Shown piece after piece: positions 14,236 to 51,069 of a stretch of 64,000 bases of DNA. This stretch comes from Staphylococcus phage AH12. The stretch lies in sequence record OR455461.1, one strand, 5' to 3'. Within the stretch, counting starts at the first letter, position 1; the number at the start of each line of letters is the position of its first letter. The position numbers and the translations under genes were made by a program. The notes beneath the pieces are model-generated. The model did no database searches, was not told where the DNA came from, and saw only the letters and a program-made list of their open reading frames with translations.

Positions 14236-14400
14236 TTCCTTTCTAGTGTTAATTTATAATAAAAATAAAAATATAGAATCACTACACGCTAATATAATTT
14301 TTCTAATTTTATATTTTATAAATAAATGTTTAAAGTAAATAAACCTTAATTTTCTTCGTTTTAAGATTTTGTATATATTTTTTAACTAAAACTTTCTAAT

Positions 14401-15930: not shown

Positions 15931-16059
15931 TGCCTTCCTTATTTTTATTAAGATTTTTATAAAATTATGTTTGATGATGATTTTTAGTAAAAAAAGTAAA
16001 AAAAAAATTAGCTATTAATGACTCCATTTAAGGAATCACTAATAGCTAATTTAAGATGA

Positions 16060-25860: not shown

Positions 25861-25957
25861 ATTGATATAAAACGGTAATATGTAACTCATATAGTTTAAA
25901 ATATTATGATAACATATTATTATAATAATACAAACAAAATTATTCAGAAAGAAGGTC

Positions 25958-29150: not shown

Positions 29151-29519
29151 TACTTTTACGAGAAAAGTATAAAGTTGCTTTAATAATTTTTTATATCCTA
29201 TAAAGCATAAGAAGGATTAAAGAAACCAATATATGCATGGAACATATTAGGAATCTTATAGTGATATTTTAATAGTCTAGTTTTTCTTATATTAGGAACT
29301 AAAACTAGAAAACCTAAAGTGTATTAAAGTCAGATACTTATCACAAATTAATGTAAAATAAGTCCTCTTTAATACTTCTTTTTTAATACTTTTTTACAAC
29401 TAAAGATATGCCTTAACTTTAGTTGAATCTAATAAATTAAGTTTGGCATATCACTTAATTTATATTTTATTTATAGCAGGTCTGCAGCCAAGCTATAAGG
29501 ATGATTAATCCTATAGGGT

Positions 29520-29604
29520 TGTTCCTAATGAGATTCGAACTCATAACCTACAGATAAATTTTAATTCATAAATCTGTACGCTCTGACCATTGAGCTATAG
29601 GAAC
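29520..29604 (-). tRNA. tRNA-like gene (85 nt) with canonical acceptor, D and T arms but a non-canonical, expanded anticodon region (7-bp stem, 16-nt loop)
   Basis: The minus-strand sequence reads GTTCCTA-TA-GCTC-AATGGTCA-GAGC...ATGAG-TTCGAAT-CTCAT-TAGGAAC. The acceptor stem has 7 bp, the D-loop is TAGCTCAATGG and the T-loop is TTCGAAT. The anticodon arm does not fold as 5 bp plus 7 nt. Confidence 0.5.
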
Positions 29605-29964
29605 ATAGAAATTTAAAAAAAAATTAAAAGAGTACATTTATCATCTATGCACTCTTTTAAGTAAATAAATATATAATAATATCTATTAATTTTTAATTAT
29701 ACGTAAGGAGGCGTATGGATTTCTATTTAAAACCATGACATATTAAAAATAGAAACAAGAGAAACCAAAGAAACATTTTTAAACCAACAACGAGTGACAA
29801 AGTAAGTTATAATAGAATTTAATCTATTATATTTTTTAGTTAAATCAAAAACTAAAAAAAATCTATAATAATTTGACGAGAATCATTATAGATTTATACT
29901 ATATAGTTAATTAATATTTTTAAATAAAATTTTTTTAATAAATAGGAATTTTAGACCAAAAAAA

Positions 29965-30034
29965 AGCTTATCCGAGGGATCGAACCCCGGACACATGATG
30001 AAAATCATTGCTCTACCAACTGAGCTAGATAAAC
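29965..30034 (-). tRNA. tRNA-like gene (~70 nt) with canonical acceptor/D/T arms but a shortened anticodon arm (ATGAT-TTTC-ATCAT)
   Basis: The minus-strand sequence reads GTTTATC-TA-GCTC-AGTTGGTA-GAGC-A-ATGATTTTCATCAT-GTGTC-CGGGG-TTCGATC-CCTCG-GATAAGC. The anticodon loop appears to be 4 nt. Confidence 0.45.
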
Positions 30035-30072
30035 TTTCTTCATTATTATAATATATGTTTATATTTCACTAT

Positions 30073-42797: not shown

Positions 42798-42844
42798 AAT
42801 TTTATAACATTATTATATAATATTAATTATTTTTCGCTGTTTTA

Positions 42845-42966: not shown

Positions 42967-44121
42967 TTGAATAACGAAGATGGTAAAGTTTTAATAACGG
43001 TTCCCCATAGAACATATATACCTAATAAAGGGATGGGTCCAATAAATAAACCCTTTTATGTTAATAAAGATATTTTAAAATTGTATGACTTAATGAATAT
43101 ACAATATAAGAGAATAACTGAGTATGATTATGTAGATATAAATGAAGATGGAAAATATGAAGTTGAAGAAATTAAATCAGTAGAAGATTATATTGAAATG
43201 AAGTACTTACAGGTTAATGAAATACTTAAACAGATAAAAATTATATCTAATGACAGTGAAAAGATTAATAACGAAATGGAAGACAAATTTAAAAAAGTTA
43301 AAGAAAATTTAATCGATACTGACAATCTTAATGAATATTTAAGTGACCTTGATAAATTTAAATATAATATAGAAGATAAAAAATTAGATCTTCAATCTGA
43401 AAAAGAAGATGTTATTTCAACAATAGAAGATATGAATAATAAATTGAGTAATATGAAAGATACTTTATCAGATTTTGAAAAAGTAAGAGAACAGTTCAAT
43501 AGTAATTATAATAATACAATGAGTCTTAATGATGAAATGCAGAATCTAAGTGAAACTGCAAATTATATTAAGAATATGGAAAATGATGTAGTTAAGGTTG
43601 AAGAAAAATTAAATCTTATAAAAAATAAATCTGAAGAACTAAAATCTTCACAAGATTCATTTAATAATAAAATAGATGATTTTGAAAATAAATTATTAGA
43701 TTATAAAGAAAATCTTAAAAATTATATGATAGAAAATGCTGAAAAGTATAAAGGTGATCCAGGTATGCAAGGTCCAAGAGGTGAACCTTTCAAATATTCC
43801 GATTTTACTCAAGAGCAATTAGCTGAGTTAAAAGGAGATAAATTCACATACGAAGATTTTACTCAAGATCAATTAGACTTATTAAAAGGTGAAAAAGGTG
43901 ATAAATTAACTTTTAGTGATTTAACTACTGAAGATAAAAAAGAACTAAAAGGTGATAAAGGGGATAAATTAACTTTTAATGATCTGTCTAGTGAAGATAA
44001 AGAAGAATTAAAAGGTGAACAAGGAGATAAGGGTGATTCAGCTCCTCCTAAAGTATTCACTAGAGATGAGTATGATACTTTAGAAGAAAAAGATCCTAAT
44101 ACGCTTTACTTTATTATATAG
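42967..44121 (+). CDS. collagen-like repeat protein (tail-fiber/appendage candidate); N-terminal module shared with 47912-48475
   Basis: Gly-X-Y runs such as 'GDPGMQGPRGEP' and repeated 'KGDKGDKLTF.DL' are present. The N-terminal 'VPHRTYIPNKGMGPINKPFYVNKDILKLY' parallels 'VPGKGKGPFVKPFIATGSQIRLY'. Confidence 0.5.
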   Translation: MNNEDGKVLITVPHRTYIPNKGMGPINKPFYVNKDILKLYDLMNIQYKRITEYDYVDINEDGKYEVEEIKSVEDYIEMKYLQVNEILKQIKIISNDSEKINNEMEDKFKKVKENLIDTDNLNEYLSDLDKFKYNIEDKKLDLQSEKEDVISTIEDMNNKLSNMKDTLSDFEKVREQFNSNYNNTMSLNDEMQNLSETANYIKNMENDVVKVEEKLNLIKNKSEELKSSQDSFNNKIDDFENKLLDYKENLKNYMIENAEKYKGDPGMQGPRGEPFKYSDFTQEQLAELKGDKFTYEDFTQDQLDLLKGEKGDKLTFSDLTTEDKKELKGDKGDKLTFNDLSSEDKEELKGEQGDKGDSAPPKVFTRDEYDTLEEKDPNTLYFII

Positions 44122-44126
44122 AAAGG

Positions 44127-44957
44127 ATGATTGAAATGTTAAATATAGGAAGTCTTAAATCATCTTTTCTATATAAAGGTGATAATTTAATTTATCCCAA
44201 TCCTATTAAAGATGGTTTAATACTATGGTATGATTTTGCAGGAATGAAAAATGATAGTGTTAATAAAAATATTACAAAAGATTTAACAAAGAATACAAAT
44301 GAAAGTGCTAAACACTTTAATTTTTTATACAATTCTCAAAGTGGATATAATAAAGGAATAAAGTTTGATGGTATTGATGATAGAATTATTCCAATAGCGA
44401 AACATGTAGATGATGGTACAACAGGTCAATTGGATATGAAAAAAATAAATAATGGACAACTTTTCTCCGTTGAAATGACAATAAAGATGTCTGACACGCT
44501 TATAGAACAAGGCTCAGAAATATTTATGACTAGTAAGACATACGGTAGATTTTGGTTACAATTTTTGAAAGATAATAACCACACTGAATCCGATGAGTTT
44601 GTTATATCCACTTCAACATATTATGGAAATGAAGGCGGAAGAAGTACTTACGTATTTAGTAAAGAAGAATCATATAAATATGGAGATGAATTTCATTTAA
44701 CTGCTACATTAGATAAAAATGATAAAATCATATTATATGTAAATGGAATAAAAAAAGACGAAAAACCTTTAGACGATATCAAAATTACAACTCCTCAAGA
44801 ACAAGACTTCTTAGTCTATATGGGTCAAGGAGATTCAAGTGCGTATTATCGTAGATTTGACCATGAACTATACTCAATGAAAATATACGACAGAGTTCTT
44901 ACTGAAGAAGAAATCCAATATAATTATCAATTAGAAAAAGAAAGATGGGAGTTATAA
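44127..44957 (+). CDS. LamG (concanavalin A-like lectin/glucanase) domain protein
   Basis: 'NPIKDGLILWYDFAGMKND' and a C-terminal 'YNYQLEKERWEL' are present. The protein is a paralog of the next gene. Confidence 0.55.
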   Translation: MIEMLNIGSLKSSFLYKGDNLIYPNPIKDGLILWYDFAGMKNDSVNKNITKDLTKNTNESAKHFNFLYNSQSGYNKGIKFDGIDDRIIPIAKHVDDGTTGQLDMKKINNGQLFSVEMTIKMSDTLIEQGSEIFMTSKTYGRFWLQFLKDNNHTESDEFVISTSTYYGNEGGRSTYVFSKEESYKYGDEFHLTATLDKNDKIILYVNGIKKDEKPLDDIKITTPQEQDFLVYMGQGDSSAYYRRFDHELYSMKIYDRVLTEEEIQYNYQLEKERWEL

Positions 44958-45688
44958 TTATGAGTATAATTAAATTAGGCAATGATCCCATATCTTTTGT
45001 TTATCAAGGTAATGAGTTGTTATATCCTAATCCAGTTAAAGACGGTTTATTATTATGGTATGATTTTAAAGGTATAAAGAATGACATGAATAAAGATGTT
45101 GCTATAGATTTAAGTGGAAACGAGAACAATGGGACTTTACAAAATTTTGCTTATACAAGCGATAGTGGATATGATGACGGATTGAAATTTGACAATATCG
45201 ATGATAGATTGGTTACAAATACTAATATTGAGTCTAATTCATTTACTTTATCTATGACTATTGATATAAAAAATCAAAAAGATATAAATTTTTTATTTGG
45301 TGGCAATATTTCTGCGTTTTATATGAGAAAAAATTACAATGATTTACACGCTTCTATTTTTACTGACAAACAAGTAACTTCTTCATCCGGAAATAAATTC
45401 TTCTATAATCTATTTAATGAAGGTAAATCAAAATGTCAGGTTATATTAAAAGTCGATGACGATAATAAGACACTTTCAATATTAGGTAATGGAATATTGC
45501 TTGATGAAAGAATATTTGAAGGTATAATAAATAAATGGAGGGTAACTAGTTTGGGAGCATGGTCATCATCATCTAATAATGACAATCTCAATGGTAAACT
45601 TTTATCATCCCATCTTTACAATAGAGCATTATCTCTAGAAGAAATAAAACATAACTTTGAGTTAGAAAAAGAAAGGTGGAACTTGTAA
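44945..45688 (+). CDS. LamG domain protein (paralog of 44127-44957)
   Basis: 'NPVKDGLLLWYDFKGIKND...DLSGNENNGTLQN' and a C-terminal 'HNFELEKERWNL' are present. The true start is probably the ATG at about 44960. Confidence 0.55.
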   Translation: MGVIIMSIIKLGNDPISFVYQGNELLYPNPVKDGLLLWYDFKGIKNDMNKDVAIDLSGNENNGTLQNFAYTSDSGYDDGLKFDNIDDRLVTNTNIESNSFTLSMTIDIKNQKDINFLFGGNISAFYMRKNYNDLHASIFTDKQVTSSSGNKFFYNLFNEGKSKCQVILKVDDDNKTLSILGNGILLDERIFEGIINKWRVTSLGAWSSSSNNDNLNGKLLSSHLYNRALSLEEIKHNFELEKERWNL

Positions 45689-45909
45689 TGAAGTTTGTAA
45701 TTGCAGATGTGGAATTTTTTGAAAGATTGGGTTATAGCACTAAATATTGGAGAAAATCTGTAGACGGAAATAAAACTATATGTCATCTAGAATATGCAGA
45801 AATTTTAGATAACGGTATTCAAGAAGAAGAAGATGTTTTAGTCGTTGATGCAACTGAAGCTCAAGATATTATGAATACGGAAGAATGGTCTAGTAAAGAA
45901 GAAGAATAA
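45676..45909 (+). CDS. hypothetical small acidic protein
   Basis: Its start overlaps the stop of the previous gene (ATGA). Confidence 0.35.
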   Translation: MELVMKFVIADVEFFERLGYSTKYWRKSVDGNKTICHLEYAEILDNGIQEEEDVLVVDATEAQDIMNTEEWSSKEEE

Positions 45910-45950
45910 GAACAAGTAAATATAATAAAAATAAATGGAGGAAATTTTTT

Positions 45951-46913
45951 ATGGCTAAAAAACATATCGGTACATGGAACGGTGTTCCTGTTTATACTGA
46001 TTTTTTACCAATAGGTACACGTAGAGCTGGAGATAAGCTTAACGGACCTAAATTTATTGTTGCTCATGACACAGGAAACCCTAACACTACTGCTCAAAAT
46101 AATGTCGATTACTATCGTAATTCATATAATATCGACTGGAACTATACTGCTTCAGCACATATTTTTGTTGATGATAAAGAATGTATTATCTGTGTTCCTT
46201 TAGATGAAAAAGCATGGCATGTTATGTATAATACACCAACTGACAATGCTTGGTATGGAGCAGATGCAAACGATGCAGCTATTGGTGTTGAAGGATGTTA
46301 CTTCTCTAATAGAAGTCGTTCATTAAAATCATTTGATAACTATTGTCGTATTCTTGCTTTCTTATGTAAAGAATATAAAATTAATGCAAGCACAAATATG
46401 CCTGGTCACCAAGATATTCAGGCAGATAAACAAGATCCAGGTAACTTATTAGCTGCATGCGGTATGTCTCGTAGTGTTTCTAATGTAGATAAAAAAGTTC
46501 TAGCTTATATGAAAACTGGTGCTACTTCTACAGCTAAAACTTCAACAGCAACTAAAGTTGCTACTAAAGAAGAAGTTGCTAAGAAAGCTCCAGCTAAACC
46601 AGCTAAAACTTCAACTGCAACTTCTAAAACTTGGAAACGTAATTCTGCAGGTATTCTATGGAAAACTGAAAAAGCTACATTTAAATGTGGTGTTGCAGTA
46701 GGTATTAAAACACGTAAAGGTGGTCCATGGACTGGATGGCCGCAAGGTCCATTTATGGCTAAAGGAGATACTATTAAATATGATGAAATTCAAGATTTTG
46801 ATGGATATATTTGGGTATCAGGTAACTTTAAAGGCCAATACGTTTATGTACCGGTTGGTAAATCAACAGGAAATGGTAAACGTGTAGGTCCAGCATGGGG
46901 TACATTTAGTTAA
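45951..46913 (+). CDS. endolysin 1: N-acetylmuramoyl-L-alanine amidase (Amidase_2/PGRP) + SH3b (SH3_5) cell-wall-binding domain
   Basis: The amidase motifs 'IVAHDTGNP', 'WHV' and 'GVEGCYF' are present. The C-terminal 'WKRNSAGILWKTEKATFKCGV...GPAWGTFS' aligns to staphylococcal lysin SH3b domains. An RBS 'aatggagga' lies upstream. Confidence 0.8.
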   Translation: MAKKHIGTWNGVPVYTDFLPIGTRRAGDKLNGPKFIVAHDTGNPNTTAQNNVDYYRNSYNIDWNYTASAHIFVDDKECIICVPLDEKAWHVMYNTPTDNAWYGADANDAAIGVEGCYFSNRSRSLKSFDNYCRILAFLCKEYKINASTNMPGHQDIQADKQDPGNLLAACGMSRSVSNVDKKVLAYMKTGATSTAKTSTATKVATKEEVAKKAPAKPAKTSTATSKTWKRNSAGILWKTEKATFKCGVAVGIKTRKGGPWTGWPQGPFMAKGDTIKYDEIQDFDGYIWVSGNFKGQYVYVPVGKSTGNGKRVGPAWGTFS

Positions 46914-47028
46914 TTCATTAATTTAATTGTCCTAACGTTCATATAGAGCGTTAGGACTTATTTCTTTAATAGAAGAACAGGTTATTATAAATATATAAAA
47001 TGGAATAAAGAAAGGATTTGAATTCTAT

Positions 47029-47826
47029 ATGAAAACAAAAACTCAAGCTCTTGATTGGGTTAATAATCGTATTGGTCGCAGACTAGACTTTGATGGTTGG
47101 TATGGAGCTCAGTGTATGGATTTAACTATAGGTTACTGTGATTATATTTCAGGAGGTTCATTCCGTCCTTGGGGTAATGCAATTAATCTTAAAGACAATA
47201 CAATGCCAGCTGGATGGGAATTAATTAAAAATACTACATCATTCCTACCTCAACCTGGTGATATTGCTATTTGGGCTTATGCACCTTACGATGTTTATGG
47301 TCATACAGGTATTATTACTTCAGCTAACTTAAATAATTTCTATTCAATTGATCAGAACTGGTTTAACGCAGGAAGTAATGGTTCACCTGCTGCTAAAGTA
47401 TTTCATGATTATACAGGTTTCTGGGGAGTAATTCGTCCAGCTTTTGGTAGTACAACTACTAAGAAAGCAGTTACTAAGGAAGTCGCTACTAAGAAAGCAG
47501 TTGTTAAGAAAGCAACTCCTAAGAAAGCAACTACAACAGCTACTTGGAAACGTAACTCTGCAGGCATTCTATGGAAAACTGAAAAAGCTACATTTAAATG
47601 TAATGTATCTTCAGGAATCATTACACGTAAAAATGGTCCATGGACTGGATGGGCTCAAGGTCCATTTATGAAGAAAGGCGATAGTATTAAATATGACGAA
47701 ATTCAAGATTTTGATGGTCATGTTTGGGTATCAGGTAAATTTAAAGGACAATATGTATACGTGCCAATTGGTAAATCAAATGGTAAAGGACAACGTATTG
47801 GTGCCGCATGGGGTACATTTAGTTAA
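47029..47826 (+). CDS. endolysin 2: CHAP peptidase + SH3b (SH3_5) domain
   Basis: The CHAP Cys 'GAQCMDL' and His 'YGHTGII' are present. The C-terminal SH3b is about 85-90% identical to that of 45951-46913. Confidence 0.8.
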   Translation: MKTKTQALDWVNNRIGRRLDFDGWYGAQCMDLTIGYCDYISGGSFRPWGNAINLKDNTMPAGWELIKNTTSFLPQPGDIAIWAYAPYDVYGHTGIITSANLNNFYSIDQNWFNAGSNGSPAAKVFHDYTGFWGVIRPAFGSTTTKKAVTKEVATKKAVVKKATPKKATTTATWKRNSAGILWKTEKATFKCNVSSGIITRKNGPWTGWAQGPFMKKGDSIKYDEIQDFDGHVWVSGKFKGQYVYVPIGKSNGKGQRIGAAWGTFS

Positions 47827-47835
47827 TTAAGTTTT

Positions 47836-47868
47836 TAAAGGGATTTTTATAAAATCCCTTTCTAACTT
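47836..47868 (+). terminator. hairpin AAGGGATTTT..AAAATCCCTT + T-run
   Basis: A perfect inverted repeat lies directly after the lysin stop codon. Confidence 0.6.
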
Positions 47869-47911
47869 TTTTATATAATAAAATAATAAAGATGAAAGGA
47901 AAGAAAATTAT

Positions 47912-48475
47912 ATGTTAAAATTTAATGAAGATAATAATTTCATTATTATTAATGAAAAAGCATTTGTACCTGGTAAAGGTAAAGGTCCTTTTGTTAAACC
48001 ATTTATAGCTACAGGATCTCAAATTCGTTTATATAGACGTTTAGGTTTACAAGTAACAGTAGTAGATGAAGATTATGAATATCCTAGTGATAAAGATAAT
48101 AAAAAAGAAGAAAAAGCTGAAAAGAATGAAAAAGTCAGTGTTGAAAAAAGTAATGATACAACAACTGAAACAAAGAAAGATGAGAAAAGTGACTCTTCAG
48201 AAAGCAAAGAAGAGAGCGAAGTTTCTGAAGAAAGTAATGAAGAACAGTCAGTTGATGACAAAGTAGATGAACCTCAAGAAGATTCTAATGAAGAAAAAGA
48301 ATCTGATAAAGTTGAAGAAGATAGTTCTGAAGAAGAATCAGAAATTAGTGAAGAAGATTTAAATGAATTCACTGTAGCTGAACTTAAAGAAGAATTAGAT
48401 TCAAAAGGCGTTGAATATCCAAATAATGCACGTAAAAAAGATTTAATTGAATTATTAAAAGAAAACTCAAAATAA
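47912..48475 (+). CDS. acidic protein with N-terminal module shared with 42967-44121 and a C-terminal SAP/HeH-like motif
   Basis: 'EFTVAELKEELDSKGVEYPNNARKKDLIELL' resembles a SAP/HeH motif. The centre is E/S-rich. Confidence 0.4.
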   Translation: MLKFNEDNNFIIINEKAFVPGKGKGPFVKPFIATGSQIRLYRRLGLQVTVVDEDYEYPSDKDNKKEEKAEKNEKVSVEKSNDTTTETKKDEKSDSSESKEESEVSEESNEEQSVDDKVDEPQEDSNEEKESDKVEEDSSEEESEISEEDLNEFTVAELKEELDSKGVEYPNNARKKDLIELLKENSK

Positions 48476-48495
48476 GAAAGGAAGTTTAACTGATA

Positions 48496-50163
48496 ATGGC
48501 AACTACTAACTTTTATAAAGTGAAAGTATTAGATGAAAAAATAATTCCATTTTTAGGTTATAAAGAATACGGTCCTAGAGAAAATGTTATTCTTTCTGGT
48601 AGTGATTTAGCTAGTTTAAAACAAGCTGGTTGGACTATTACTGATGTTACACCTTTACCGGAAACTGGAAAAATTAAATATGATAGACGTACTATTTATT
48701 TCAAAACTGAAGGAGAACAAGGTAAATTTATTAATGTTCCTTTCTATGTAAATCCTGTTGATGCTCGTGATGTATTTGGTTTACTTAAACTTGATTTAAT
48801 CAAATTATCTGATGAAACAGTTGTAAGTACACATAATGTTAAAGATATTAAAAATGAAATATTAAGTATACCTACTTCTGATCTTGAAATTGGTGAAGAA
48901 TATAAATTAAGATTATACTTCCCTAAAGATGCAGATGAAGATTATGATATAGCTATTTCTGAAGGTCATAAAGATCTTTTTGAAAGAGTTCATGATGAAG
49001 TAACTATTAAAGTAAAAGAATATGGTAAAATTACAGGTCGTCTTGTTCAATTACAACAAGATATTAATGTATATAAAGAATCTGTATTACCTTTAGAGAA
49101 AATTGTAGGATATAAAGACTTTGATTCTAAAGAGGTAACTCCTATAAGTAAAGAGAATTTATTACAATTATTATCAGTTGAAGTTAGTGATACTAGCTTT
49201 GCTAAATTTGAACGTAATAAAAATCGCTTATTCTTCTATAGTAAAGAAGGAAAAATAGTTGTTAAAGTTATTGAAAAGAATATTCAAGACAATATCATTA
49301 ACTTTAACGTACGTATTTTAAGTGAAGAAACAGCACAAAAAGAAATTGATAAAAAACTTGAATATTCTGTTTATAATCCTGAAGATGGAAAATTTGAAAG
49401 CATTAATCAAACTAAAAGTATAACTGTTACTCCAGAGACAGTTAATATTGAAGCTGAAGGAACTCAAAAATTAGAAGTTACTACTGAACCAGAAGGAAGA
49501 AAAGTGAGCTTTGAGTTAAAAGACGGTTCTGAATTTGCTTCATTAGATAATAAAGGAAATATTACTGGTATTTCTGAAGGAACTGCAACTGTTACAGTTA
49601 AATCAGATAATGTTTCTAAAGATGTAAAGGTTAATGTAAGCCGTTTAAAGACTAAGAGTCTAACTGTTACTCCAGAAGAAATTAACATAGATGCAGAATC
49701 AACTCAACAGTTAGACGTTAAAATTCAACCAACTACAAACTCTGTAAGTTATTCTATTACTGAAGGATCTGAATTTGCTTCAGTTAATAACAGTGGTCTT
49801 GTAACTGCTAAAGCTGTAGGAACTGCTAAAGTTAAAGTAAGTTCTGATTCCATTAGTAAGACAGTTAATGTTAATGTAACTAGAGTAAAAACTAAAACTC
49901 TAAATGTTACTCCTAATAGTGTTGATATTAAAGATAATGAAACACAACAATTAACGGTAACTACGGATCCTAAAGGAAACCCTGTAAGCTATTCTATCTC
50001 TGAAGGATCTGAATTTGCTTCAGTTAATAATAGTGGTCTTGTAACCGCTATATCTGAAGGAACTGCTAAAGTTAAGGTTGTTTCTGATAGTGTAAGTAAA
50101 GATGTTAGTATTAACATATCTACTTCACAAGTAGAAGAATCTCCTGAAGAACCTTTAGAATAA
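48496..50163 (+). CDS. protein with three C-terminal tandem Big_2 (bacterial Ig-like) domains; virion decoration/adhesin candidate
   Basis: Three repeats of about 90 aa each match 'LTVTPE..NI.A..TQQL.V...P....VSYSI.EGSEFASV.N.G.VTA...GTA.VKV'. At DNA level this is a tandem repeat at about 49390-50150. Confidence 0.6.
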   Translation: MATTNFYKVKVLDEKIIPFLGYKEYGPRENVILSGSDLASLKQAGWTITDVTPLPETGKIKYDRRTIYFKTEGEQGKFINVPFYVNPVDARDVFGLLKLDLIKLSDETVVSTHNVKDIKNEILSIPTSDLEIGEEYKLRLYFPKDADEDYDIAISEGHKDLFERVHDEVTIKVKEYGKITGRLVQLQQDINVYKESVLPLEKIVGYKDFDSKEVTPISKENLLQLLSVEVSDTSFAKFERNKNRLFFYSKEGKIVVKVIEKNIQDNIINFNVRILSEETAQKEIDKKLEYSVYNPEDGKFESINQTKSITVTPETVNIEAEGTQKLEVTTEPEGRKVSFELKDGSEFASLDNKGNITGISEGTATVTVKSDNVSKDVKVNVSRLKTKSLTVTPEEINIDAESTQQLDVKIQPTTNSVSYSITEGSEFASVNNSGLVTAKAVGTAKVKVSSDSISKTVNVNVTRVKTKTLNVTPNSVDIKDNETQQLTVTTDPKGNPVSYSISEGSEFASVNNSGLVTAISEGTAKVKVVSDSVSKDVSINISTSQVEESPEEPLE

Positions 50164-50177
50164 AAAAAAAATAATAA

Positions 50178-50222
50178 AATTCCCCAATACCTAAATTAAT
50201 AGGTATTGGGGATTATATTTTT
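50178..50222. terminator. hairpin CCCCAATACCTAAATTAATAGGTATTGGGG between convergent genes
   Basis: The sequence is identical in family to the hairpins at 39450 and 21752. Confidence 0.65.
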
Positions 50223-51069
50223 AACCTCTAATAATATCATCATCAGAAAGTTCTATTTTAGAACTTGCATCCATTTTATTTATTTCATCTGTATCTATTG
50301 TTTCTTTAATGAATTCTATTTTTAAATTCATTCCTAAAGAATTGATAACTGTTTCCATAGTCTTCCAAGTTAATTTTCCTTGTTTGATCATTTTATCTAA
50401 AGATGATTTTAGTTTACTTACTACATTAACTTCATCTGAATTCTTTTCTATCTCACCAAATAACATTTCAAATGTATAACCTTCATTACCTAATATTTCT
50501 AAGAAATCCACAAATTCTAGTATATATTCTTCATATAAAACATCTGGCATTAATTTAAATCCTAGTTTACCTGAAAATTTAGATGTCTTAGTTTTTCTTT
50601 TAGGATTATATAAAGTTAATTCATCTTTATCTTTAAATTCCTCTGAAACTAATGAAGCTTTATATCCAATTACTTCACAAATACTAATTAATGAATGTAT
50701 AGTAAATACTTTACTACTCTTCAATCTATACATAGTGTTTTTAAATGAATCGATTTCACCTTCACCATATACTTTAGCATATCTTTCAAAATATTCTTCG
50801 AAAGTCATTCCTTCTTTATCGCCTACAATATTTTCCATAAATTGAATTACCTTTTTACCTAAATAAGGTAATTTATCATATTCTTCTTTAGTAACAATTC
50901 CTTGTATACTACCATGATATTTTGAAGAATTTGATTGTTCTTCTTGATCTTCCATTTCATCATTTAATTCAGTATATCTGACATCTTTAAATACCGATTT
51001 AACATCAACTTCGTCTACATTAGATATAATTCTTTCTAATTCGTCTGAAACATCTCTATTGTTTTTCAT
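50221..51069 (-). CDS. hypothetical acidic protein
   Basis: The ORF encodes 282 aa. Confidence 0.45.
   Translation of the reverse strand: MKNNRDVSDELERIISNVDEVDVKSVFKDVRYTELNDEMEDQEEQSNSSKYHGSIQGIVTKEEYDKLPYLGKKVIQFMENIVGDKEGMTFEEYFERYAKVYGEGEIDSFKNTMYRLKSSKVFTIHSLISICEVIGYKASLVSEEFKDKDELTLYNPKRKTKTSKFSGKLGFKLMPDVLYEEYILEFVDFLEILGNEGYTFEMLFGEIEKNSDEVNVVSKLKSSLDKMIKQGKLTWKTMETVINSLGMNLKIEFIKETIDTDEINKMDASSKIELSDDDIIRG

Follow-up and report, generated by a model that had tools for sequence, protein, structure and literature searches.

Two neighbouring lysin genes in Staphylococcus phage AH12 carry different catalytic domains and similar wall-binding domains, which raises the question of how the binding modules came to match and what keeps them alike. 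We addressed it in a 64,000-nucleotide (nt) stretch of this phage (sequence record OR455461.1; hereafter the window), in which gene A (45951-46913) encodes an amidase with an SH3b domain, and gene B (47029-47826), downstream on the same (+) strand, encodes a CHAP enzyme with an SH3b domain. We think it likely that the two genes are the endolysin pair of a jumbo phage, that they are expressed as separate late units, and that the wall-binding module was copied and then homogenised by gene conversion. The two-endolysin arrangement itself has already been published and studied in the laboratory in sister phages, and the window adds a further member; the new point, drawn from comparing the sequences, is that the two binding modules have probably been homogenised by gene conversion.

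Gene A encodes a protein of 320 amino acids (aa), in which an Amidase_2 catalytic domain (approximately 46047-46445; Pfam, aa 33-165, E=1e-19) is followed by a Lys/Thr/Ala-rich linker (approximately 46503-46628) and an SH3_5 wall-binding domain (46629-46910; Pfam, aa 239-302, E=1.6e-14). The 265-aa product of gene B has a CHAP catalytic domain with Cys29 and His92 motifs (approximately 47101-47358; Pfam, aa 25-110, E=1.2e-11), a Lys-rich linker (approximately 47449-47541) and again an SH3_5 domain (47542-47823; Pfam, aa 184-247, E=3.3e-16). All four Pfam matches, two per protein, exceeded the Pfam cut-offs. The architectures given in a preliminary description of this DNA, amidase_2-SH3b and CHAP-SH3b, were thereby recovered on the + strand, and its view that these are separate genes, each with its own SH3_5 domain, was confirmed by the two co-oriented open reading frames. 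The best-matching PHROG families of both proteins are endolysins of the 'lysis' category (phrog_833, E=6e-67, for gene A; phrog_635, E=1.3e-70, for gene B). The entire gene B protein could be aligned with the solved CHAP-SH3b endolysin 8h1i (E=5.8e-37), and the solved homologs of the gene A amidase domain were distant only (best E=2.6e-07).

We compared the catalytic motifs among 15 orthologs, namely those of the window, nine sequenced relatives and five metagenomic loci (L011-L015). The Q-C and G-H motifs of the CHAP domain were invariant in all 15. The His- and Glu-containing amidase motifs VAHDTGN, GVEG and PGHQDIQADKQDPGN are kept in the orthologs of the core clade and differ by one or two residues in the outlying loci L011-L013, while the His residues are kept in all 15. 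Both proteins combine a catalytic domain with intact motifs and a C-terminal wall-binding domain, as is typical of modular Gram-positive endolysins, and by this analysis both are assigned as endolysins of a jumbo phage of the MarsHill/Machias/PALS2/S6/SA1 group, lytic activity being known from their orthologs.

The preliminary description had proposed comparing the lysin arrangement in related phages. The window region belongs to a Staphylococcus jumbo phage, with a G+C content of 25% in the window; it is 93.4% identical to Machias and PB50 and 80-88% identical to DC4, LY01, Madawaska, SA1, S6, PALS_2 and MarsHill, and the genomes of these sequenced relatives measure 259-274 kilobases. The same lysin pair was found in the same order in nine of the nine, followed by the same genes for a HeH-domain and an immunoglobulin (Ig)-domain protein. 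Deeper relatives, retrieved by full-length protein queries against a collection of 5.8 billion proteins, added the five metagenomic loci, where the pair is also present and the downstream genes are kept in L011, L013 and L014. Their amidase proteins are 70% (L011), 74% (L012), 56% (L013) and 84% (L014 and L015) identical to that of the window. Orthology to the pair of the PALS2_239/240 type holds by sequence and by synteny (amidase-SH3_5, CHAP-SH3_5, HeH protein, Ig protein).

Several of these orthologs have been described. PALS2_239 (CHAP and SH3_5) and PALS2_240 (amidase_2 and SH3_5) were predicted as the two endolysins of PALS2 (PMC7982418), and lys210 and lys211 of SA1 were expressed and were both bactericidal when acting from outside, in a report whose title ends '...With Two Lysins' (PMC9096886). 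DC4_0060 and DC4_0061 are listed in the DC4 paper (PMC10638138). ORF93 of S6 lyses nine staphylococcal species, and a shorter Lys-rich linker gave it higher activity (PMC11498662). The gene A protein is 82.8% identical to SA1 lys211, and the gene B protein is 86.8% identical to S6 ORF93 and 72.3% identical to SA1 lys210. The practical interest for enzybiotics that had been noted for this locus is borne out, as orthologs have already been expressed for that use (PMC9096886, PMC11498662). Public annotations of these lysin genes are incomplete. The CHAP-SH3_5 gene is called 'hypothetical protein' in the GenBank records of Machias (L001, 4368-5165), Madawaska (L005, 4152-4949) and MarsHill (L009, 5152-5949) and likewise in those of DC4, LY01 and S6 (L003, L004, L007); the amidase gene is also annotated as hypothetical in DC4 and S6, and the CHAP gene is not one of the candidate endolysins considered by Korn et al. 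(10.1101/2020.12.14.422802).

The similarity between the two proteins lies in their binding modules. BLASTP aligned protein A with protein B at E=6e-57, entirely from the C-terminal part. At the DNA level the SH3b copies (46629-46913 in gene A and 47542-47826 in gene B) are the arms of a direct repeat on the + strand, 46629-46926 against 47542-47839, with 84% identity over 298 nt. In both copies the first Trp codon of the SH3b domain marks the start of the repeat (46629 and 47542). Its extension by 13 nt beyond both stop codons was attributed to chance, with 8 of 13 matches in AT-rich DNA. Within the domain, comparison of 279 coding nt gives 84.2% identity in DNA and 81.7% in protein. They had been called near-identical, at 85-90% in DNA; the similarity is real and its degree, at 84%, is at or just under that range. 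The best solved relative of the gene A copy is the SH3b domain of phage 2638A (7aqh; E=1.4e-21), which the gene B copy matches at E=8.4e-24, and both also match the solved SH3b domains of ALE-1 and lysostaphin. Their nonsynonymous divergence (dN) is 0.11 and their synonymous divergence (dS) 0.48, a ratio of about 0.23, and the copies appear to have drifted to 84% DNA identity under purifying selection. The window yielded no additional copy of SH3b, CHAP or amidase.

The linkers, too, had been described as duplicated. Their local alignment score is 43, against 25.3 +/- 4.7 in codon-shuffled controls, of which 4 in 1000 reached 43 (p=0.004). The likeness is above that of the controls, and it supports homology weakly, because the linkers are of low complexity and that of the CHAP gene contains a 15-nt tandem repeat (47456-47534, + strand; 5.3 copies, each coding for some five residues such as KKAVT; score of 88 in Tandem Repeats Finder). 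The CHAP-gene linker varies in length among the orthologs, whose proteins range from 255 to 278 aa.

How old the duplication is, and whether the copies evolved independently since, can be judged from the orthologs. Among the ten sequenced phages (the window and its nine relatives) the SH3b segments group by gene: gene A copies are on average 89.9% identical to one another and gene B copies 90.7%, and the mean identity of paralogs is 84.9% in the same genome and 83.4% in different ones. Among these close relatives, then, orthologs resemble each other more than same-genome paralogs do, and a recent duplication fails the refuting test that the preliminary description itself had set. At the same time, the pairing of the two copies of one genome beat permuted genome pairings (p=0.002); with the divergent lineages included the permutation gave p=0.0004, a value that partly restates the tree result below and serves as support only. 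Sawyer-type tests pointed to conversion tracts in Machias and PB50 (domain nt 176-219, p=0.006-0.013) and in DC4, S6, PALS2 and Madawaska (domain nt 5-57, p=0.013-0.027); the candidate tract of the window pair (domain nt 24-57) was not significant (p=0.28). The gene A copies of Madawaska and S6 differ at six positions, four of them within 16 nt, and at three the S6 copy is the same as its own gene B copy.

A second line of evidence comes from the deeper relatives. We built neighbour-joining trees from 273 columns, with three outlying metagenomic lineages (L011, SRR15442755; L012, ERR10857033; and L013, ERZ27257812). In these trees the 14 core-clade copies of A and of B form one clade against the copies of the outlying lineages (bootstrap 95% in DNA and 71% in protein, with outgroups), and monophyly of all A or of all B copies received 0-12%. 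Four-point sums favoured grouping the two paralogs with each other, whichever of the three outlying phages was used. The core copies differ by about 17% of DNA positions from each other, as against about 25-30% from their own orthologs in L011 and L012. When derived states were polarised by the outlying orthologs, 13 sites had changed to the same base in both core copies where about 1.5-2.2 were expected, and 6 of the 13 are at third codon positions (about 1 expected). The dS of the window paralogs, 0.48, falls within the range among core-clade orthologs (0.09-0.69). Homogenisation would have been partial, because the paralog-specific C-terminal signatures GNG[KR]R.GP (gene A) and GKGQR.G[AS] (gene B) persist in L011 and L012. 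A count of 33 shared polymorphisms against 6 fixed differences was discarded as proof of conversion, since third positions are nearly saturated and homoplasy is expected; the case was built instead on the genome-matched permutation, the tract tests, the deeper outgroups and the polarised derived states.

These patterns support concerted evolution of the core-clade paralogs, which group together to the exclusion of their orthologs, and partial homogenisation seems to fit gene conversion better than a fresh duplication. In the ancestor of the sequenced clade, gene conversion would have made the two binding modules alike once more, and some lineages may still acquire short tracts in this way. Of the ongoing gene conversion that had been suggested for this locus, the part that concerns the history of the clade stands, and the part that concerns the window genome, with no significant recent tract (p=0.28), does not; conversion appears to be episodic in the clade and not currently active here.

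The same data could be explained by a single old duplication of the SH3b domain that preceded the splits between lineages, the copies having since been held alike by purifying selection and by parallel adaptation to the same wall ligand, with no conversion. The greater likeness of orthologs than of paralogs in the ten sequenced phages, the signatures kept in L011 and L012, the dN/dS of about 0.23 and the placement of 7 of the 13 shared derived sites outside third codon positions all agree with it, and near-saturation of third positions means that shared polymorphisms alone prove nothing. It has difficulty with core copies that are closer to each other than to their own L011 and L012 orthologs (about 17% against about 25-30%), with the four-point sums and the 95% bootstrap that group the paralogs, with six synonymous third-position sites derived in both copies where about one is expected, and with the clustered tracts of Machias/PB50 and of the S6 group that match the paralog of the same genome. 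We regard an old duplication without conversion as unlikely, and keep gene conversion as the preferred reading. The most distant relative, L013 (5001-6745; ENA ERZ27257812, contig k141_8599), has the two genes 29 nt apart. The N-terminal domain of its second protein has diverged (33% identical), with no CHAP match on record, and its SH3b copies are 36% identical in protein and 53% in DNA. It may be a pair that was not homogenised, or one in which a module was replaced.

To get at the origin of the pair we looked at relatives of its modules outside the jumbo phages. The closest CHAP and SH3_5 modules were those of three-domain CHAP-Amidase_2-SH3_5 lysins of Staphylococcus and Mammaliicoccus (33-41% identity for CHAP, 50-61% for SH3b). 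The central amidase of P0126, the three-domain lysin tested, does not align with the window amidase, which is about 66% identical to the N-terminal amidases of Silviavirus Amidase_2-SH3b_P2, Macrococcus Amidase_2-SH3_5 and Amidase_2-CHAP-SH3b_P2 proteins. Both SH3b copies are nearest to the SH3_5 of three-domain lysins and not to that of the Macrococcus amidases (34-36%), and they are 82% identical to each other in protein, as against at most 61% to any SH3_5 domain identified outside the jumbo phages. The two catalytic domains thus appear to have different histories and yet to carry the same binding domain. On the simplest reading, one neighbour would have passed a copy of its binding module to the other, the CHAP gene probably being the donor and the amidase gene the recipient. 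The Macrococcus Amidase_2-SH3_5 proteins were considered as the source of the whole of gene A and rejected: their amidase is about 65% identical, but their SH3b domain is further away than that of the three-domain lysins.

The preliminary description had proposed instead the fission of a CHAP-amidase-SH3b lysin, in which a three-domain protein (LysK or phi11 type) would have become two genes before the SH3b domain was duplicated. The nearest non-jumbo relatives of the CHAP and SH3_5 domains are indeed such lysins. A split, however, would place amidase-SH3b downstream of the CHAP domain, whereas the amidase gene is the first of the two in the window; the window amidase has other relatives than the CHAP domain, failing to align with the central amidase of P0126 and being about 66% identical to N-terminal amidases of other architectures; and in Silviavirus this amidase domain and gene order occur together with another family of binding domain. 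Since the catalytic domains differ in ancestry, the pair would not have come from simple fission of a LysK-type lysin, and we hold this origin to be very improbable. An endolysin of the LysK type split by an intron was also considered and rejected. In 44000-50500, Rfam detected no intron or other RNA family at E<=1; gene A has an SH3b domain and a stop codon of its own, and CHAP lies downstream. That no intron separates the genes, as had been noted before, agrees with the 115-nt spacer between them, where a terminator hairpin is followed by a promoter-like motif and a ribosome-binding site. Copying of the binding module between neighbours remains the reading that we carry forward.

Staphylococcus jumbo phages encode their own RNA polymerases. 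Candidate late promoters for the non-virion RNA polymerase of the phage lie upstream of both genes, in the form of the motif AACA(N6)TA on the + strand: AACAAGTAAATA at 45911-45922, 29 nt upstream of the amidase gene, and AACAGGTTATTA at 46976-46987, 42 nt upstream of the CHAP gene. Both match the late-promoter consensus AACA(N6)TW of AR9, a related jumbo phage with uracil-containing DNA, as quoted in the preprint of Korn et al. (10.1101/2020.12.14.422802). The motif upstream of the amidase gene is present in 10 of the 10 sequenced phages, even where the upstream neighbour differs, and also in L011, L012 and L015; the one in the spacer is likewise present in all ten and in L011, L012 and L014. 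Taking both genes together, 14 of 15 genomes have the motif ahead of each. Each gene is followed on the + strand by a terminator-like hairpin and a T-rich run, at 46929-46967 after gene A (hairpin 46929-46957, 12 pairs, GTCCTAACG...CGTTAGGAC) and at 47837-47871 after gene B (hairpin 47837-47861, AAAGGGATTTTTATAAAATCCCTTT). A terminator scan reported seven sites in the region where 0.7 were expected. The gene A hairpin occurs in 14 of 15 relatives, with changes in both arms that keep the pairing, the gene B hairpin is conserved in the sequenced relatives, and both are annotated as terminators in Machias. In the 29-nt spacer of L013 both the AACA motif and the terminator are absent. A ribosome-binding site for gene A, GGAGGA (45937-45942, + strand), was read from the sequence and is annotated at the equivalent place in Machias. 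The presence of an AACA(N6)TA motif and a terminator at each gene leads us to infer two late transcription units, one per gene.

A stricter form of the motif, AACANNNWWWTATA, has six matches in the window (14317-14330 and 15958-15971 on the - strand; 25911-25924, 42806-42819, 45911-45924 and 46976-46989 on the + strand). All six are intergenic, upstream of an open reading frame and co-oriented with it, a placement that fits an AR9-like late promoter. Korn et al. reported that such a promoter was not found de novo in MarsHill (10.1101/2020.12.14.422802). A sigma-70 promoter scan was uninformative (12 sites, 11.8 expected).

As for the mode of action, both enzymes would build up in the cytoplasm until a holin, whose gene lies elsewhere in the genome, gives them access to the wall; in relatives the holin is annotated far from the lysin genes. 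Each enzyme would be targeted to staphylococcal peptidoglycan by its own SH3_5 domain, and two different bonds would be cut at sites chosen by near-equivalent binding modules. We infer the timing of expression, the specificity for bonds, the synergy and the direction of copying, specificity and synergy being drawn from what is known of the families. It could also be that only one of the two genes encodes the true endolysin and that the other product is a virion-associated or accessory wall hydrolase, used for entry or for a wider host range. The pair does sit among genes for tail-fibre-like proteins upstream and an Ig-domain protein downstream, the holin is remote (PMC9096886), a third amidase is encoded elsewhere in these phages, and Korn et al. 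left open which amidase is the endolysin (10.1101/2020.12.14.422802). Virion-associated hydrolases, though, commonly have no C-terminal binding domain, according to passages of the DC4 paper (PMC10638138), whereas both proteins here consist of a catalytic domain, a linker and an SH3b domain; neither protein appears among the virion proteins in those passages; and both orthologs lyse cells from outside. We give this division of roles hardly any credence, and retain two endolysins.

Some of our results pull the other way from the joint reading of a jumbo-phage endolysin pair, expressed in separate late units, whose binding module was copied and homogenised. Within the sequenced clade the orthologs cluster and the window pair has no significant tract. 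The p-values of the tract tests are only nominal after correction for about six lineages, and the conversion signal at the deep level rests on the three metagenomic lineages and the 273-column neighbour-joining trees. Long-branch attraction and parallel selection on two domains for the same ligand could be the source of part of that signal. Of the shared derived sites, seven fall at first or second codon positions. The promoter motif is short, and the count of AACANNNWWWTATA in the window is not above chance (6 matches, 4.25 expected). No homolog of Phage_holin_1 was found in the window, and no holin was found near the pair.

The genes around the lysins deserve a brief description. Just upstream are tandem paralogous genes of the Laminin_G_3/ConA-like type (44127-44957 and 44945-45688, + strand; compare L003, L005, L007 and L008 at approximately 620-2968), and the block adjoining the lysins looks like a variable host-recognition cassette. 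Downstream, 47912-48475 (+ strand) encodes a 187-aa protein with a very acidic middle part rich in Ser, Glu and Lys and a C-terminal HeH/LEM (SAP-like) DNA-binding motif (Pfam HeH, E=1.1e-09); its gene directly follows the lysin pair in every relative with downstream sequence, L011 and L013 included. The next gene (48496-50163, + strand) encodes 555 aa with repeated Ig-like domains of the Big_2 type and matches structural-protein PHROGs. The protein annotated at this position differs widely in length among relatives (shortest in S6, 476 aa; longest in LY01, 642 aa), and repeat units may therefore have been gained and lost. Farther away, ARAGORN reported two genes resembling those of transfer RNAs (tRNAs) at 29517-29605 and 29964-30035 (- strand), with no assigned identity and a two-base 'tt' anticodon call; either these are phage tRNAs of an unusual or intron-containing kind, or DNA of 25% G+C has given false positives.

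If the homogenisation is real, gene conversion within a genome stands beside exchange between phages as a mechanism of endolysin module evolution, and its confirmation would imply that docking of both enzymes on one wall ligand is favoured by selection. It would also mean that natural, strictly two-domain SH3_5 lysins exist, a type missing from a 2025 survey, which reported no strictly two-domain SH3_5 (SH3b_P1) endolysins among 182 staphylococcal endolysin sequences and in which we did not find the jumbo pair (bioRxiv 10.1101/2025.02.06.636829). On the applied side, lys210, lys211 and S6 ORF93 have already been expressed as antistaphylococcal agents, and the window adds one sequence variant of each enzyme. 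For engineering, the phages offer natural pairs of binding domains, 75-87% identical and in one genetic background, that are usable to map residues tolerating change, as well as natural two-domain SH3_5 lysins whose Lys-rich linkers are long and differ in length. The evolutionary value of the locus, as the sequences suggest, would lie in a wall-binding module kept matched by occasional gene conversion, and in a second phage family that has the same layout with a different binding domain.

Among known systems, the tandem endolysins of the jumbo phages (PALS2_239/240, SA1 lys210/lys211, DC4_0060/0061, S6_ORF93/ORF94 and Machias gp154/gp155) are the same as the window pair in locus, order, strand, architectures and downstream genes. 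The differences are at the sequence level only: the proteins are 83-95% (amidase) and 72-93% (CHAP enzyme) identical, the window genome is distinct, with 93% DNA identity to the nearest, and its CHAP-gene SH3b domain lacks the A-like tract at nt 176-219 that Machias and PB50 have. The CHAP-SH3b endolysins of podoviruses (SAP-2/P68 type; 8h1i) have the two-domain layout of gene B and can be aligned with it end to end, but at about 34% identity, and these phages have a single endolysin with no paired amidase gene. Three-domain lysins of the LysK/phi11 type (P0125, P0126, P0128) share with the CHAP-gene SH3b copy the C-terminal motif PIGKSNGKGQR[IV]G.AWGTF; they are single polypeptides, unlike the two genes of the window. 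In Kayvirus the gene of the LysK type is interrupted by an intron, and the window pair has none. Amidase_2-CHAP-SH3b lysins such as P0069, an architecture described in the 2025 survey (bioRxiv 10.1101/2025.02.06.636829), have their domains in the order of the window genes and an amidase that is 67% identical, but they are one protein with one binding domain of the SH3b_P2 type, and their CHAP domain is 26% identical to that of the window.

The closest parallel in organisation is Silviavirus, of the Herelleviridae, whose lytic modules are known to encode two muralytic proteins (PMC7150955). In phage SA11 (NC_019511; L010, 2498-4687) the holin gp170 is followed by gp171 (Amidase_2-SH3b_P2) and gp172 (CHAP-SH3b_P2), so that the order of the lysins is that of the window. 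The SA11 amidase domain is about 66% identical to that of the window, and both SA11 lysins carry one family of binding domain, which is SH3b_P2 (PF25606) and not SH3_5, the two copies being 59% identical to each other. A homologous amidase domain carries, in each of the phage groups, the binding-domain family of its CHAP neighbour; we found no discussion of this matching in a limited literature search. The SA11 cassette differs in having the holin gene directly upstream and a 13-nt spacer with no terminator, and its CHAP domain is 32% identical to that of the window. The window pair, with SH3_5 matches only and no adjacent holin, is not a member of the Silviavirus cassette, yet the two systems work alike. 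We lean, by a little, to the view that phages with split lysins keep both binding modules matched by repeated copying or conversion between neighbouring genes, and that this came about independently with SH3_5 in the jumbo phages and with SH3b_P2 in Silviavirus.

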